Made by a program: the position numbers and the translations under genes. A stretch of 64,000 nucleotides of DNA, taken from sequence record OR780565.1; one strand, written 5' to 3'. Source of the stretch: Escherichia phage DCP2. Of the stretch, positions 9,608 to 59,251 are shown piece by piece; the stretch's first letter is position 1, and each line of letters starts with the position of its first letter. The notes beneath the pieces are model-generated. The model had not been told where the DNA came from and ran no database searches. It saw nothing but the letters and a program-made list of their open reading frames with translations.

Positions 9608-9640
9608 GTTTACTTTCTCAGCTTGCTGTGGTATTATAAA
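9608..9640 (+). promoter_or_regulatory. T4-type early promoter
   Basis: GTTTAC 9608-9613, -10 TATTATAAA about 17 bp downstream. Confidence 0.6.
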
Positions 9641-9662
9641 ATAAACTGCTGAGGATAATATA

Positions 9663-11002
<1,340 letters not shown>

Positions 11003-11965: not shown

Positions 11966-11973
11966 TATAAATA
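11966..11973 (+). promoter_or_regulatory. T4 late promoter (TATAAATA) for soc
   Basis: Exact TATAAATA octamer about 30 bp upstream of soc ATG; soc is a late gene. Confidence 0.6.
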
Positions 11974-12002
11974 GTCATGTAATTTAAATAAAGGAGAATT
12001 AC

Positions 12003-12248
12003 ATGGCTAGTACTCGCGGTTATGTTAATATTAAAACATTTGAGCAAAAATTAGATGGAAATAAGAAAATTGAAGGAAAGGAAATTTCTGTAGCTTTCCC
12101 TCTTTATTCTGACGTTCACAAAATTTCTGGCGCTCATTATCAGATATTCCCTTCAGAAAAAGCAGCATATTCTACAGTATATGAAGAAAATCAACGTACT
12201 GAATGGATTACTGCAAACGAAGATTTGTGGAAAGTAACTGGTGAATAA
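12003..12248 (+). CDS. soc: Soc small outer capsid protein
   Basis: 81 aa; near-identical to T4 Soc (MASTRGYVNIKTFEQKLDGNKKIEGKEISVAFPLYSDVHKISGAHYQ). Confidence 0.9.
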   Translation: MASTRGYVNIKTFEQKLDGNKKIEGKEISVAFPLYSDVHKISGAHYQIFPSEKAAYSTVYEENQRTEWITANEDLWKVTGE

Positions 12249-12253
12249 ATTCA

Positions 12254-12278
12254 AGGACTCCTTCGGGAGTCCTTTTTT
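12254..12278 (+). terminator. intrinsic terminator after soc
   Basis: GGACTCC-TTCG-GGAGTCC hairpin (UUCG tetraloop) followed by T6. Confidence 0.75.
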
Positions 12279-12288
12279 CATTTTACCG

Positions 12289-12318
12289 GTTTACTTTCCA
12301 AAATGAGTATGGTATAAT
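12289..12318 (+). promoter_or_regulatory. T4-type early promoter
   Basis: GTTTAC 12289-12294, TATAAT 12313-12318. Confidence 0.6.
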
Positions 12319-13567: not shown

Positions 13568-13728
13568 ACAGAGATATGACGCTAGAAGAGGCCAAGGCTA
13601 AAGCAAATGAAGCACTGGATTTGCTTCTTAAAATTGGCAGTAAAATGATGGAAGAAAATGAGAAATATATCCAGGAAAACAAAATTCCTGACGGCCCATT
13701 AGTAGGCAAAAGGAAATCACATGATTGA
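13564..13728 (+). CDS. hypothetical protein (54 aa)
   Basis: ATGA overlap with upstream ORF; below track cut-off. Confidence 0.4.
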
Positions 13729-14191
13729 AGTAGCAAAACATTATTCAATAGAATTTATGTCTAAAGAAGGTAAATCAGTAAATGCACTTGATAAAAAATG
13801 CTCATTAATTATTCCTTTAGCAGAAAATCCGGATCTTTTAATTAAAGATATAAAAGAAAGAAAATATCCAGAAAATGTTATTCTAATTATAAAGCATACT
13901 GAAGATATTTTACAGAATACTGATTCACCGTTTTCTTCTTCTGAAGCTTTAACTATTAAAGGCTATAAAAGAGCTCATGAATATGGTCTTTTTGACCTGT
14001 TTGAAGATGATAAAGTTAAATTAGCGAGTCAACCTTTTAAAAGTAAAACATTCATTATTGAAGATATTAAAGATATAAATGCATTTGTTAAGATGGTCTG
14101 GGCTCATTTTGATGTTGGACTACGCTGGAGAATGTCTGAAGAAGAAAGAAAGATTATTGAAGCTAATCGTCAATTTGGTTTTTATCGCTAG
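13721..14191 (+). CDS. hypothetical protein (156 aa)
   Basis: ORF in the mrh-region position between soc and modB. Confidence 0.5.
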
Positions 14192-14199
14192 GAATTAGT

Positions 14200-14382
14200 A
14201 TGGATTTATTTGAGATGTTAGAAGATAATCATTCTACGAATATCCAGAATGATTCTAGTGATTATAAGAAAGAATACCGTATAGTATTACAGAATTATGG
14301 AATTGAAGCCCCAGATGCTCTTCTAGAAGAACTAGCTTCATACCATCTTGACCCTCCGCCCTGGGCTCCCTGGGCAAAATAA
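14200..14382 (+). CDS. hypothetical protein (60 aa)
   Basis: short ORF, acidic. Confidence 0.45.
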   Translation: MDLFEMLEDNHSTNIQNDSSDYKKEYRIVLQNYGIEAPDALLEELASYHLDPPPWAPWAK

Positions 14383-14393
14383 TTCAAAAAGTT

Positions 14394-14425
14394 GTTTACT
14401 TTCCTTCCTAACAATGATATGATAG
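14394..14425 (+). promoter_or_regulatory. T4-type early promoter upstream of modB
   Basis: GTTTAC 14394-14399, -10 GATATGATAG. Confidence 0.55.
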
Positions 14426-14449
14426 CTTCTGAAGTATATGGAGGCTATC

Positions 14450-15073
14450 ATGATTATTAATCTTGCAGATGTTGAACAGTTATCTATAAAAGCTGAAAGT
14501 GTCGATTTTCAATATGATATGTATAAAAAAGTCTGTGAAAAATTTACTGACTTTGAACAATCAGTTCTTTGGCAATGTATGGAAGCCAAAAAGAATGAAG
14601 CTCTTCATCGGCAGTTGAATAAAATCGTTAAAAAGCATTTAACTAAATCACCTTATCAGCTATATCGTGGTATATCAAAATCGACAAAAGAGCTCATTAA
14701 AGATTTACAAGTTGGAGAAGTGTTTTCAACGAATAGAGTAGATTCATTTACTACTAGTTTGCACACAGCGTGCGGTTTTTCTTATGTTGAGTATTTCACT
14801 GAAATAATATTTCGCTTAAAAACTGATAAAGCTTTTAATTACTCTGACCATATCAGCGATATTATACTTTCTTCTCCTAATACTGAGTTTAAGTATACAT
14901 ATGAAGATACTGATGGATTAGATTCAGAACGTACTGATAACTTAATGATGATTGTGCGTGAACAAGAATGGATGATTCCAATTGGAAAGTATAGAATAAC
15001 TTCTATTTCAAAAGAAAAATTACACGATTCATTTGGAACATTTAAAGTGTATGATATTGAGGTAGTTGAATGA
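14450..15073 (+). CDS. modB: ModB-like ADP-ribosyltransferase
   Basis: 207 aa from ATG with GGAGG RBS; paralogous to following ORF; position and length as T4 modB. Confidence 0.6.
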   Translation: MIINLADVEQLSIKAESVDFQYDMYKKVCEKFTDFEQSVLWQCMEAKKNEALHRQLNKIVKKHLTKSPYQLYRGISKSTKELIKDLQVGEVFSTNRVDSFTTSLHTACGFSYVEYFTEIIFRLKTDKAFNYSDHISDIILSSPNTEFKYTYEDTDGLDSERTDNLMMIVREQEWMIPIGKYRITSISKEKLHDSFGTFKVYDIEVVE

Positions 15074-15672
15074 AATATTCAGCAATGCAATTAAAAGATT
15101 TTAAAATCAAATCAATGGATGCATCGGTGCGTGCTTCTATTCGTGAAGAATTACTTTCTGAAGGATTTAATTTATCTGAAATTGAACTTTTAATTCATTG
15201 TATTACTAATAAGCCAGACGACCACTCTTGGTTAAATGAAATAATCAAATCTCGTTTGGTTCCAAACGATAAACCTCTTTGGAGAGGTGTTCCAGTTGAG
15301 ACTAAGCAGGTGTTAAATCAAGGAATTGATATTATTACATTTGATAAAGTAGTATCAGCTTCATATGATAAAAATATAGCTCTACATTTTGCTTCTGGAT
15401 TAGAATACAATACACAAGTTATTTTTGAATTCAAAGCTCCTATGGTATTTAATTTTCAGGAGTATGCTATAAAAGCTCTACGTTGTAAAGAATATAGTCC
15501 GAGTTTTAAATTTCCAGATAGCCATCGCTATCGTAATATGGAATTAGTTTCAGATGAACAAGAAGTAATGATACCAGCTGGAAGTGTATTTAGAATTGCG
15601 GATAGATATGAGTATAAAAAGTATTCAACATACACTATCTATACTCTTGATTTTGAAGGATTTAATCTATAA
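15070..15672 (+). CDS. modA: ModA-like ADP-ribosyltransferase
   Basis: 200 aa; paralog of preceding ORF; ATGA overlap. Confidence 0.6.
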   Translation: MKYSAMQLKDFKIKSMDASVRASIREELLSEGFNLSEIELLIHCITNKPDDHSWLNEIIKSRLVPNDKPLWRGVPVETKQVLNQGIDIITFDKVVSASYDKNIALHFASGLEYNTQVIFEFKAPMVFNFQEYAIKALRCKEYSPSFKFPDSHRYRNMELVSDEQEVMIPAGSVFRIADRYEYKKYSTYTIYTLDFEGFNL

Positions 15673-15787: not shown

Positions 15788-16534
15788 ATGAAACTGTCTA
15801 AAAATCAAATTCGTAAAATTACACGTCGTTTAGAGCATACTCAGGCATCAGCTAAAAGACGTTCTAAAGATTTTAACTTAGACTTCAATTACATTAAGAA
15901 CATTTTAGATCAGAAAGTTTGCGCTTACTCAGGAGAACCTTTTGATAATCGTATTGAAGGAGAGAAATTATCGTTAGAACGTTTTGATAATAACGTTGGA
16001 TACATTAAAGGGAATGTTATTGCAGTAAAGAAAAAGTATAATACATTTCGTTCTGATTATACTTTAGAAGAGTTGATTGAAAAGCGTGATTTATTTGCTT
16101 TGCGAATTGGTCGTTCATCTGCGAAAAAAGTTCATAAACTAAATTTAGATGAAAAGAAATGGGCTAAAATCAAAAAGACTTATAATCAAATTAAAGCTAT
16201 ACAGAAAAAACGCGAAAACCGAATTGAGCACATTTCTCAGCTTTCTAAATCAAAACAAACTTCTGACGTTAAGCTAACGATTATAGCACTTAAAGCTCGT
16301 ATTGATGGTTCTCGTATAGCAGAAGGCGCTGAAGTTGTTAAATTGAACGTTCTTCTTAAAGGCTCGGATTGGAAAACTGTGAAAAAGTTGTCAGAAGCAG
16401 AAATGCAATATGATATGTGTGATAAAATTATTCAAGGTGTAGAGCGGTATCAAAACTTGTCTTTTATTGATAAACTTAAACTGAAAAGAGGATACCCGCT
16501 AAATTGTTCAATTTTTAAACTTATCCGAGGATAA
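15788..16534 (+). CDS. srd: Srd-like protein (248 aa)
   Basis: Basic coiled-coil-like 248 aa ORF between modA and dda as in T4. Confidence 0.5.
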   Translation: MKLSKNQIRKITRRLEHTQASAKRRSKDFNLDFNYIKNILDQKVCAYSGEPFDNRIEGEKLSLERFDNNVGYIKGNVIAVKKKYNTFRSDYTLEELIEKRDLFALRIGRSSAKKVHKLNLDEKKWAKIKKTYNQIKAIQKKRENRIEHISQLSKSKQTSDVKLTIIALKARIDGSRIAEGAEVVKLNVLLKGSDWKTVKKLSEAEMQYDMCDKIIQGVERYQNLSFIDKLKLKRGYPLNCSIFKLIRG

Positions 16535-19348: not shown

Positions 19349-19354
19349 AAAGTT

Positions 19355-19385
19355 GTTTACTTCCTCAGTTAGTTGTGGTATTATA
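19355..19385 (+). promoter_or_regulatory. T4-type early promoter
   Basis: GTTTAC 19355-19360, TATTAT 19379-19384. Confidence 0.6.
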
Positions 19386-19411
19386 ACACCATAGCTACTG
19401 AGGATAATAAA

Positions 19412-19912
19412 ATGAAAATTTATCGTGTTGAATCATCGTTTAGTATTCTTGATTATGAAGATGCTATAACAATACGTCGAAATCTTTGTGTTCAAATAAC
19501 GCCGTACAGGAGTATAATAGATTCATGGAGCGAAGAGTGGCTATTACACGTAGGTTATGACAGACCTAATTTTATGCATCATAGCGATAATAATAAAAGA
19601 ATTCCTTTACCACACGAAGATAAACTATTAGTTAAAAACGCTAATATAGTAATTAATACTAAGTTCAAGAAAGATTATGTTGGATTAGAATATCATATTC
19701 CAGGATGGTTTATAGCTCTTTATCATTTTGCTTTCGCTAGTGAATATGATATGATGAGATGGTTCACACGAGAAGAGCGGGAAGAATTATCTTCTAAAGG
19801 ATTTTATCTCGCTGTATACGAAGTTCCAGATGATCAAGTTATCATTGGCGGGCACCAAGTAATGTTCCGCAAATCGCATGCTGAACTCATAGATTTTATT
19901 GAAATGAGATAA
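19412..19912 (+). CDS. hypothetical protein (166 aa)
   Basis: ATG after GAGGA RBS downstream of promoter (track start 19373 lies upstream of the promoter). Confidence 0.5.
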   Translation: MKIYRVESSFSILDYEDAITIRRNLCVQITPYRSIIDSWSEEWLLHVGYDRPNFMHHSDNNKRIPLPHEDKLLVKNANIVINTKFKKDYVGLEYHIPGWFIALYHFAFASEYDMMRWFTREEREELSSKGFYLAVYEVPDDQVIIGGHQVMFRKSHAELIDFIEMR

Positions 19913-55889: not shown

Positions 55890-57068
55890 ATGAGCACAGT
55901 TTTTAATACAAATCCAGTTGATGTTTTAAAAGAACCTATGTTTTTTGGTTCAGGTCTTGGTATTGCGCGTTATGATATTCAACGTCATAAAGTTTTTGAA
56001 GATTTAACCGAAAAGCAGTTGTCATTTTTCTGGCGTCCTGAAGAAGTAAACTTAATGATGGATGCTGCGCAATTTAATAAGCTTCCTCAGTATCAGCAAA
56101 ATATTTTTACTAATAACCTGAAGTATCAATCACTTTTGGATAGCATTCAGGGTCGTGCGCCGTCTGCTGTACTTATGTCATTAATTTCAGACCCAAGCCT
56201 TGATACATGGGTTGCTACGTGGACTTTTAGTGAAACTATTCACAGCCGTTCATATACACATATCATGCGAAATCTTTATACTGATCCATCGAAAGTATTT
56301 GATGAAATTGTATTAGATGAAGCTATTATGAAACGTGCTGAATCCATTGGACGTTATTATGATGATGTTCTTAAGAAAACCCGTGAATGGGAAAATGCTA
56401 AAGAATTTGTAGAACTAGCTAAAGAATCTCCTGATGCTGATTTTCGTTTAAATCGAGCTATTAAACAAGAAGCCGAAGCTAAACGAGCACTAATGAAATC
56501 TCTTTATCTTTGCCTTCATGTAATCAATGCATTGGAAGCTATTCGTTTTTATGTATCTTTCGCATGTACCTTTAACTTCCATAAGAACATGGAAATCATG
56601 GAAGGTAATGCCAAGATTATGAAGTTCATTGCGCGTGATGAGCAGCTTCACCTTAAAGGCACTCAATATATTATTCGTCAACTTCAACTTGGCACTGATG
56701 GTGATGAATGGGTTAAAATTGCTCAAGAGTGTGAACAAGAAGCAGTTGATATTTTCATGGAAGTTAACCGCCAAGAAAAAGACTGGGCAGTTCATTTATT
56801 TAAAGATGGTGATGTTCCTGGATTAAATACAAATAGCATGTGGAGCTTTATTGATTACTTAACTGTATCTCGTATGAAACAGTGCGGTCTTCCATGCCCA
56901 ATTACTGATGCTCCGGTTAAACATCCGTATCCTTGGATTCGTGAATACCTTAATTCTGATAATGTTCAATCCGCGCCGCAAGAAGTAGAACTGTCATCTT
57001 ACCTTGTAGCACAGATTGATAATGATGTTGATGATAAAGTTATGATGAGTTTTAAAAAATATTTTTAA
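55890..57068 (+). CDS. nrdB: ribonucleotide reductase small subunit, intronless
   Basis: 392 aa continuous ORF, ferritin-like di-iron motifs. Confidence 0.92.
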   Translation: MSTVFNTNPVDVLKEPMFFGSGLGIARYDIQRHKVFEDLTEKQLSFFWRPEEVNLMMDAAQFNKLPQYQQNIFTNNLKYQSLLDSIQGRAPSAVLMSLISDPSLDTWVATWTFSETIHSRSYTHIMRNLYTDPSKVFDEIVLDEAIMKRAESIGRYYDDVLKKTREWENAKEFVELAKESPDADFRLNRAIKQEAEAKRALMKSLYLCLHVINALEAIRFYVSFACTFNFHKNMEIMEGNAKIMKFIARDEQLHLKGTQYIIRQLQLGTDGDEWVKIAQECEQEAVDIFMEVNRQEKDWAVHLFKDGDVPGLNTNSMWSFIDYLTVSRMKQCGLPCPITDAPVKHPYPWIREYLNSDNVQSAPQEVELSSYLVAQIDNDVDDKVMMSFKKYF

Positions 57069-57072
57069 GGAG

Positions 57073-57095
57073 TGGGCCGCAAGGCCCATTTTATT
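57073..57095 (+). terminator. hairpin plus U tract after nrdB
   Basis: TGGGCC-GCAA-GGCCCA followed by TTTTATT. Confidence 0.6.
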
Positions 57096-58683
<1,588 letters not shown>

Positions 58684-58685
58684 GC

Positions 58686-58717
58686 TGTTTACAAGTCCCT
58701 CGTGTTGTGTTATAGTA
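58686..58717 (+). promoter_or_regulatory. T4-type early promoter
   Basis: GTTTACAAGTCC then TATAGT 58711-58716. Confidence 0.6.
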
Positions 58718-58744
58718 GTCTTACTGACATAACATGAGGACTTT

Positions 58745-59251
58745 ATGATGGATTTACAGCTTATTACTACTGAAATGGTCGTTGAAGCATACGGTGATAC
58801 TACAGATGGGATTTCTGTATTTAAAGGAAATCGTCGAGTTGGATATATCACCGATCTTAAGAAAGATTTAGCTAAGCAAGTCAAGCGGAAAACGACTATT
58901 AAAGAATATCGAAATCGTCGTCTTGAGCAAGCCCGTGATATGCTTCCTGATGCGGTTGAGGAGATGAAAGTCTTTTTAGAAAATCAGCTTGCGAAATATG
59001 ATTGTGATGTGTTCATTAATCAGACTCAACCTAATGTTCATATCAATAACTGTAAATGCTACATCATCGTTAATCCTTTGACGGGAAAACATCGTCTTGG
59101 AATTAGTAATCCAAATCGTAGTGCATCAGATATGGCAGAAGATGTTGAGGCATGCTTTAAAATTTCTAAATCTCCGGCTGAACATCATATTTTAATTAAC
59201 GGTCTTTCTCAAGACGATATTGTAGAGGTTATTAAAACTTTATGCATGTAA
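58745..59251 (+). CDS. alc: Alc (blocks transcription of cytosine-containing DNA)
   Basis: 167-168 aa (tandem ATGs at 58745/58748) directly after gene 63. Confidence 0.7.
   Translation: MMDLQLITTEMVVEAYGDTTDGISVFKGNRRVGYITDLKKDLAKQVKRKTTIKEYRNRRLEQARDMLPDAVEEMKVFLENQLAKYDCDVFINQTQPNVHINNCKCYIIVNPLTGKHRLGISNPNRSASDMAEDVEACFKISKSPAEHHILINGLSQDDIVEVIKTLCM

Follow-up and report, generated by a model that had tools for sequence, protein, structure and literature searches.

A hairpin at the modB translation start of a T4-like phage as a probable promoter-gated translational mask

In this study, we analysed a window of 64,000 nucleotides (nt) of DNA from Escherichia phage DCP2 (sequence record OR780565.1; one strand, 5' to 3', numbered from its first letter), and focused on a hairpin that covers the translation start of modB, the gene of an ADP-ribosyltransferase. 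We suggest, with a probability of roughly 0.7, that this hairpin masks the translation start of modB in cis and that the choice of promoter gates the mask, which would be closed in transcripts that arrive from upstream and open in those that start at the early promoter of modB itself. The reading is supported by the folding energetics, by the promoter annotation, by the soc gene as a control in the same window, and by covariation of the pairing across genera.

Results

Structure and significance of the hairpin

The original prediction described an inverted repeat in which ATGATAGC (14419-14426) pairs with GCTATCAT (14444-14451), as an 8-base-pair (bp) stem around a 17-nt loop that holds the Shine–Dalgarno sequence (SD), with the modB ATG in the 3' arm. 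Both sequences were found exactly at these positions, and the ATG lies at 14450-14452. Folding with ViennaRNA corrected the stem and loop: the core helix has 12 bp, including the wobble pairs U14427-G14443 and U14430-G14440, and closes a loop of 9 nt, while the GGAGG is located in the stem. The CUUCU at the 3' end of the 5' arm is an anti-SD that pairs with the whole GGAGG. As the SD is in the stem and not in the loop, the masking would be stronger than had been proposed. Of the start codon, the A and U (14450-14451) are paired, and the G (14452) is bulged outside the core helix. The elements at this site are as follows.

14413-14418, + strand: 5' side of the outer helix, AAUGAU, pairing with 14453-14458 across the bulged G14452 (51-nt fold)
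14419-14430, + strand: 5' arm of the core helix, AUGAUAGCUUCU (minimum free energy (MFE) and centroid structures; pair probabilities 0.93-1.00)
14431-14439, + strand: loop of 9 nt, GAAGUAUAU (ViennaRNA fold)
14440-14451, + strand: 3' arm of the core helix, GGAGGCUAUCAU, with the SD GGAGG at 14440-14444 and the A and U of the start codon at 14450-14451
14453-14458, + strand: 3' side of the outer helix, AUUAUU, which is codons 2-3 of modB (51-nt fold)
14450-15073, + strand: modB coding sequence, a 207-aa ADP-ribosyltransferase (open reading frame (ORF) list, T4 annotation, phrog_832)

The 34-nt element had an MFE of -14.8 kcal/mol (z -4.4), and none of 200 shuffled sequences was as stable. Adding the outer 6-bp helix lowered the MFE to -17.8 kcal/mol (z -5.4, 51-nt fold), so that the folding energy is far above a negligible level. 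All twelve core pairs had a probability of at least 0.93 in a 650-nt context. When the 57-nt folds of this strand are ranked, the hairpin falls within the top 0.66%, with about 28 loci in the 64 kb equal or stronger.

The bare perfect 8-bp repeat is no rarer than expected by chance, as dinucleotide shuffles gave 26.7 ± 5.1 such repeats (loops of 3-20 nt) and the window holds 44. What stands above chance is the extended structure, its exact siting on the promoter and the translation start, and its conservation across genera. Among the curated Rfam families only chance matches were obtained (E 2-8; 13-21 bits against gathering scores of 35-85), and the RefSeq and GenBank genome records of T4 carry no promoter or stem-loop feature at the modB start.

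An early promoter embedded in the 5' arm

The modB promoter is of the sigma-70 early type, with TTTACT, a 17-nt spacing, TG and TATGAT. Its -10 box overlaps the first five nt of the core 5' arm and also the outer helix; the overlap with the 5' arm had been foreseen from the letters alone, and indeed TATGAT at 14418-14423 runs into the arm that begins at 14419.

14394-14400, + strand: -35 element GTTTACT, preceded by an A-rich stretch (consensus scan, TTTACT at 14395-14400; the minus_35_signal of X98695)
14415-14423, + strand: extended -10 element, TG at 14415-14416 and TATGAT at 14418-14423 (consensus scan; X98695)
14429-14432, + strand: predicted transcription start, +1 at about 14430, placed 7 nt past the -10 box

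The T4 modA/modB deposit in GenBank (X98695) annotates a -35, a -10 and a ribosome-binding site (RBS) at the matching positions, the RBS being equivalent to 14441-14444, and the record of phage fPS-90 has a "predicted early promoter" at the same site. By coordinate arithmetic, this promoter is very probably Pe12.8 of PMC6024815. No late-promoter motif TATAAATA was seen in the local sequence inspected near modB. The -10 region (14413-14423) is internally repetitive (ATGATATGATA).

By the convention that the T of the -10 box is at -7 (PMC1524935), an RNA from this promoter would keep no more of the 5' arm than its last nucleotide. Since the -10 box belongs to this arm, the rest of the arm would not be transcribed. 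Folded from the predicted +1, the RNA had only -1.4 kcal/mol.

Two predicted transcript classes with different opening costs

We calculated the opening cost of the modB start as the energy needed to make positions -13 to +5 single-stranded. For RNAs starting anywhere from 14426 to 14433 the cost was 3.7-4.7 kcal/mol, so the choice of start within this range hardly matters. For RNAs starting at 14413, 14386, 14383, 14200, 14146 or 14000, it was 12.3-15.3 kcal/mol. The computed values thus agree with the predicted behaviour of an open promoter-initiated RNA and a masked read-through RNA. The opening cost of modB ranks seventh among 65 SD-preceded gene starts, directly behind soc.

Two features upstream bear on the longer transcripts.

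12290-12318, + strand: early-type promoter before mrh.2, about 2.1 kb 5' of the hairpin, at the position of T4 Pe15.0
14200-14382, + strand: modA.2, the gene 5' of modB (ORF list, T4 annotation), with its stop codon at 14380-14382, 30 nt 5' of the outer helix and 36 nt 5' of the core arm

The name Pe15.0 was assigned by coordinate arithmetic against PMC6024815, and this promoter is the likely source of the read-through transcripts. No terminator was predicted on the + strand between it and the hairpin, the hairpin itself excepted, and in T4 no middle promoter has been mapped between 11138 and 16813. Read-through into modB is therefore plausible. As the modA.2 stop codon lies 30-36 nt 5' of the arms, a ribosome terminating there should not melt the hairpin. 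Published RNA sequencing (RNA-seq) of T4 at 5 min (PMC6024815, Table S1) has reads on both sides of the hairpin, in per-gene counts that cannot separate the two transcript classes. The reads per nt vary from 1.4 to 5.6 among genes of the same operon, falling from 4.3 in modA.2 to 1.4 in modB and from 5.6 in mrh.1 to 1.4 in mrh.

The soc gene as a positive control

The established case of soc is in the same window, with the late promoter and the arms arranged as follows.

11967-11974: late promoter TATAAATA of soc
11977-11985: 5' arm CATGTAATT
11998-12006: 3' arm AATTACATG, with the soc ATG at 12004

In the same calculation, opening the soc start cost 4.2-4.8 kcal/mol from the late start and 14.1-15.2 kcal/mol in the read-through RNA. 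The predicted differential of modB (about 8-10 kcal/mol) equals that of soc. It was also observed that the soc stop codon is followed by a typical terminator (12253-12274, in the stretch 12253-12279), with a UUCG tetraloop and a T-run, and at once by the mrh.2 early promoter.

Conservation and covariation in Tevenvirinae

T4 has the same element. The loop U14439 is a C in T4 and pairs with G14431, which gives a 13th pair, a 7-nt loop and -20.8 kcal/mol. Within Tequatrovirus, only two 46-nt haplotypes were present in 488 records. Between genera, ModB is merely 30-39% identical, yet the architecture is kept at the gene that follows modA.2. We compared 27 distinct upstream sequences from Tequatro-, Jiaoda-, Karam-, Dhaka-, Mosig-, Kanagawa-, Marfa-, Moon- and Gelderlandvirus and from IMG/VR contigs. 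The GTTTAC -35, the TG-extended -10 and the hairpin were present in all 27 sequences and in the nine named genera, with hairpin energies of -14.3 to -26.7 kcal/mol, compared with -0.2 to -3.6 kcal/mol when folded from the predicted start. In the per-sequence folds, 8-16 of the 17 nt of the translation initiation region pair with pre-start nucleotides. The AUG is paired in most genera, the 3' arm always ends on the SD or AUG, and an anti-SD (CUUCU, CUUCC or CCUCU) is always present between the -10 and +1. In T4 and Karamvirus the stem is as long as 18-19 bp, and in Karamvirus it is continuous over 19 bp. The loop length (6-14 nt), the arm sequences and the register vary between genera, while the pairing is kept, as in the following pairs of 5' and 3' arms.

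T4: AUGAUAGCUUCU and GGAGGCUAUCAU
Kanagawavirus: AUGAUGACCUU and GGAGGUCAUCAU
IMG/VR contig L039: GAUGUCUUCC and GGAGGACAUC
JS10: AUGACCUCU and GGAGGUCAU
Marfavirus: GUUAGUAUCUCU and GGAGAUACUAAC, the -10 being TAGTAT

In Jiaodavirus, Marfavirus and one IMG/VR lineage (L030), the register is about 5 nt further upstream than that of T4. It suggests that the hairpin has slipped along the repeat of the -10 region in evolution while the SD and AUG stayed covered.

For the covariation test, the arms were cut out at set distances from the -10 and the ATG, with no folding used. The T4 register paired 84.3% of the cells, compared with 32-55% when it was slid. There were 20 double-change cells and the covariation score was 0.283, and each of these values was reached in none of 500 shuffles. 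Position -5 varies among G-C, G-U, A-U and U-A. From these alignments, the pairing appears to be maintained by compensatory substitutions across lineages. Of 18 sequences, 15 folded more stably as sense than as antisense RNA, the mean difference being 5.4 kcal/mol in favour of the sense strand. This advantage is due to G-U pairs (0-5 per stem) and points to an RNA structure rather than a DNA dyad.

As a control of specificity, we used the second, modA-type gene of Mosigvirus and Dhakavirus, which has its own GTTTAC promoter. No structure was found there, with z of +0.2 to +0.8 in eight cases and -1.6 in contig L051. In these phages the modA-type gene (L017:895, L022:847, L041, L049-L054) stands apart from modB, whereas the modA of Tequatrovirus overlaps modB and has no promoter of its own. 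Thus the wiring of the two ADP-ribosyltransferases differs between genera.

Discussion

How the mask would work

ModB attaches RNA chains to ribosomal proteins, and T4 with inactive ModB has a fourfold smaller burst (PMC10468400). Over-expression of ModB reportedly kills the host (PMC3014915). We presume that upstream transcripts, mainly from the mrh.2 early promoter, carry both arms and form the hairpin of 12 bp, or up to 18 bp with the outer helix. The pairing of the GGAGG with CUUCU, and of the A and U of the AUG, would then block the binding of the 30S subunit and leave modB untranslated, and ribosomes finishing modA.2 would stop too far away to open the helix. RNA from the modB early promoter would start at about 14430, past the 5' arm, and would therefore offer a single-stranded ribosome site for translation; on this RNA, the GGAG would also be exposed to the RegB nuclease. 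ModB, and possibly modA, would be made only while the modB early promoter fires, so that this dose-sensitive takeover enzyme would come in a brief pulse that limits itself. The likely benefit would be a limit on the dose and time of a host-lethal enzyme, with no continued synthesis from long-lived or later read-through RNA. If this holds, it would explain how the phage doses and times ModB, positions 14424-14426 and their partners would be a mutable handle on that timing, and promoter-gated masking would extend from late to immediate-early genes.

Several observations weigh against this reading. The modB start site was placed by its spacing from the -10 box, and our literature search found no genome-wide map of T4 start sites. 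The step in RNA-seq coverage at the hairpin is matched by the scatter within the operon, so that these counts do not show the amount of read-through RNA. The masking and the unmasking transcripts would both be early, which makes the benefit less obvious than in the late-promoter cases. As for the evolutionary evidence, the near-invariance of the element within Tequatrovirus means that this genus gives no covariation, and the structure used in the covariation test came from a member of the alignment and was thereby favoured over the slid versions. RNAalifold on a MAFFT alignment of 16 sequences gave no consensus structure; this is attributable to the different registers and loop lengths of the genera and not to want of structure. 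Jiaodavirus folds as well or better on the antisense strand.

Other explanations of the hairpin

The hairpin could be an intrinsic terminator or attenuator that ends the mrh.2-modA.2 unit just inside modB, in which case the masking would be incidental. A simple terminator scan does list 14418-14452, with 14 pairs and the tail ATTATTAATC, and the fall in reads per nt from modA.2 to modB would fit termination, although an equal step is found inside the upstream operon between mrh.1 and mrh. The G+C-rich stem and the conserved U-tract directly after it, which mark a Rho-independent terminator, are not present in the modB hairpin. The base of its stem is A-U rich, 4 of the 14 pairs are G-C, and the nucleotides of the putative U-tract are engaged in the outer helix. 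The 8 nt past the stem contain 1-5 U (mostly 2-3) and are not conserved (ACAAAAAT in JS10, TCAAAAAG in CF1). The trait that is conserved, a 3' arm ending on the SD or AUG, is needless for a terminator, and we regard this explanation as improbable. We consider it very improbable that the hairpin reflects a DNA-level dyad (a protein operator or a cruciform at the promoter) or that it arose by chance from a TATGAT close to the ATCATG of the start. The literal repeat is indeed no rarer than chance, the element overlaps a promoter, which is a common location for operators, and the antisense strand of Jiaodavirus folds equally well. However, the shifts of arms, loop lengths and register with the pairing kept are the signature of an RNA structure and not of a protein site, and the average advantage of the sense strand comes from G-U pairs. 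Moreover, the anti-SD is always present between the -10 and +1, where it has no role in the promoter, and the neighbouring promoter-gene pair of the same type has no structure.

A role in RNA processing or stability is also unlikely to be the main function; here the hairpin would shield the GGAG of long transcripts from RegB, protect the 3' end of the upstream message once it has been cleaved, or form an RNase III-type site at which a cut would part the two arms. The modB GGAG is a documented in vivo target of RegB (PMC1702504). RegB requires single-stranded RNA over 11 nt starting with GGA; in the hairpin every one of these nt is paired, and the modB site GGAGGCUAUCA is predicted to be single-stranded only in promoter-initiated RNA. 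[quoted passage not shown] On the other hand, only 8 of the 11 positions of the modB site agree with the RegB consensus GGAGRAYARAA. Pairing of the AUG, seen in most genera, is not needed for protection from RegB. This explanation is also compatible with masking, since one and the same pairing conceals the GGAG from both RegB and the 30S subunit.

Other early genes with the same design

We surveyed 21 early-type promoter-gene pairs on this strand for the differential, that is, the opening cost of the read-through RNA minus that of the promoter RNA. Fourteen of them, including srd and mrh.2, were without a masking differential (-1.7 to +1.9 kcal/mol). Large differentials were found in four, namely alc (+16.1 kcal/mol), modB (+8.6), an ORF at the position of T4 motB.2 (+8.6) and ORF 9663 (+7.2). 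The three besides modB are as follows.

58680-58750, + strand: start region of alc, ATG at 58745, downstream of rnlA (phrog_1253, "inhibitor of host transcription")
19350-19415: start region of the 166-aa ORF at the T4 motB.2 position, ATG at 19412; promoter GTTTAC at 19355, TG, TATTAT
9609-9665: start region of ORF 9663, ATG at 9663, 186 aa (phrog_8706); opening cost 8.9 (read-through) against 1.7 kcal/mol (promoter RNA)

The alc early-type promoter has TTTACA at 58688, TG and TATAGT. A hairpin of -24 to -27 kcal/mol, with the promoter spacer and -10 as its 5' arm, pairs the SD GAGGA. The opening cost was 19.9 kcal/mol in the read-through RNA against 3.8 kcal/mol in the promoter RNA, a differential exceeding that of modB. 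The design recurs with another arm sequence in one contig (L060) whose Alc is 60% identical, and it is ambiguous in L061, L062 and L065. The promoter of the ORF at the motB.2 position sits at the T4 Pe8.1 coordinate. Its spacer contains the 5' arm CCUCAGUUAGUUGUGGU, and the 3' arm ACCAUAGCUACUGAGG holds the SD, with -24.4 kcal/mol for the hairpin and opening costs of 15.8 and 7.2 kcal/mol for the read-through and promoter RNA, respectively. The sequence GGAUAAUAAAA at this ORF fits the RegB site that was reported for motB.2 (PMC1702504).

It is possible, though we hold this only tentatively and at somewhat below even odds, that modB, alc, the ORF at the motB.2 position and ORF 9663 belong to an unrecognised class of immediate-early host-takeover genes in T-even-type phages, in which a sigma-70 early promoter lies inside the 5' arm of an SD-masking hairpin and each gene is translatable only from its own promoter. 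Synthesis of such proteins would then be tied to the brief life of the early promoters and insulated from delayed-early and middle read-through. Early promoter activity is presumably brought to an end in part by Mod-dependent ADP-ribosylation of RNA polymerase. In such a class the GGAG would be exposed to RegB only on translatable RNA, which would explain the in vivo cleavage of modB despite its in vitro resistance. If alc and the other early genes hold up, they would point to a general level of early-gene regulation in a phage that has been studied very thoroughly.

A different arrangement was seen at 57040-57096, in a 136-aa ORF which is probably denA. A G+C-rich hairpin GGGCCGCAAGGCCC lies between its SD (AAGGAG) and ATG and is followed by a T-run, with an opening cost of 17.6 kcal/mol. 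It resembles a terminator that has been set within a translation initiation region.

Genomic context and annotation

The window is from a T4-like (Tequatrovirus) genome in the orientation of the T4 minus strand. About 500 phage records match the 2-kb region around the modB start at 95-98% identity, and the modB product is 92-100% identical to ModB of Tequatrovirus. The gene order is that of T4: modA.3 (13721-14191), modA.2 (14200-14382), modB (14450-15073), modA (15070-15672) and srd (15788-16534).

15070-15672, + strand: modA, its ATG overlapping the modB stop codon (ATGA, 15070-15073), with its own GAGG at 15059-15062

From the ATGA overlap, modA may be partly coupled to the translation of modB, although it has its own GAGG. 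We also considered an in-frame ATG at 14438-14440 (ATGGAGGCTATCATG) as the modB start and rejected it: it has no SD, overlaps the SD of the real start and is ACG in T4, and is probably not used. The ORF finder takes this ATG, 12 nt 5' of the modB start, and returns a protein of 211 aa, which could mislead automatic annotation. In many of the GenBank phage records that match 13700-14382, modA.2, modA.3 and modA.4 are mislabelled as [quoted passage not shown], evidently by name propagation from the gene symbol modA.

Comparison with known systems

Durand et al. (2006) found that the modB GGAG is cut by RegB in vivo and suggested cleavage on the nascent RNA (PMC1702504). They noticed the modB RNA structure in passing and did not read it as promoter-gated masking. 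An in vivo RegB substrate that lacks the 5' arm would be a simpler account of the modB discrepancy than cleavage of nascent RNA. The modB GGAGG is one of the in vivo sites of RegB, which targets GGAG in the SDs of early genes (PMC1702504). Unlike the hairpin, RegB acts in trans, on single-stranded GGAG; the modB hairpin is a cis element, and it would block RegB on the long RNAs. RegB and the hairpin are best regarded as two layers that act on one stretch of 11 nt.

We found no description of modB masking in the full-text literature that our search reached; key older papers lie beyond that reach, so an earlier description is possible. A review of post-transcriptional control in T4 lists e, soc, 49 and I-TevI of T4, with Aeh1 mobE and T4 segB, as masked initiation regions and does not mention modB among them (PMC3014915). 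For mobE and segB, hairpins that sequester the RBS were described by Gibb and Edgell (2009, cited in PMC3014915). Compared by that description only, these differ from modB in that they are homing-endonuclease genes and no -10 box is described in the 5' arm.

The mechanism invoked for modB is an established one for other T4 genes, as the original prediction had stated, and unmasking by a late promoter has been described for e and I-TevI (PMC3014915). As in soc, e, 49 and I-TevI, the SD and/or AUG of modB is in a local hairpin and the promoter RNA starts within or after the 5' arm, so that the long transcripts are predicted to be closed and the short ones open. Unlike e and I-TevI, where gp55-dependent late promoters delay expression to late infection, and soc with its TATAAATA, modB would be unmasked by a sigma-70 early promoter. 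Both of its transcript classes would be pre-replicative, and expression would be confined to the window of early firing. Taken together, modB would be an addition to the known masking control, and its early promoter is what makes it distinctive.

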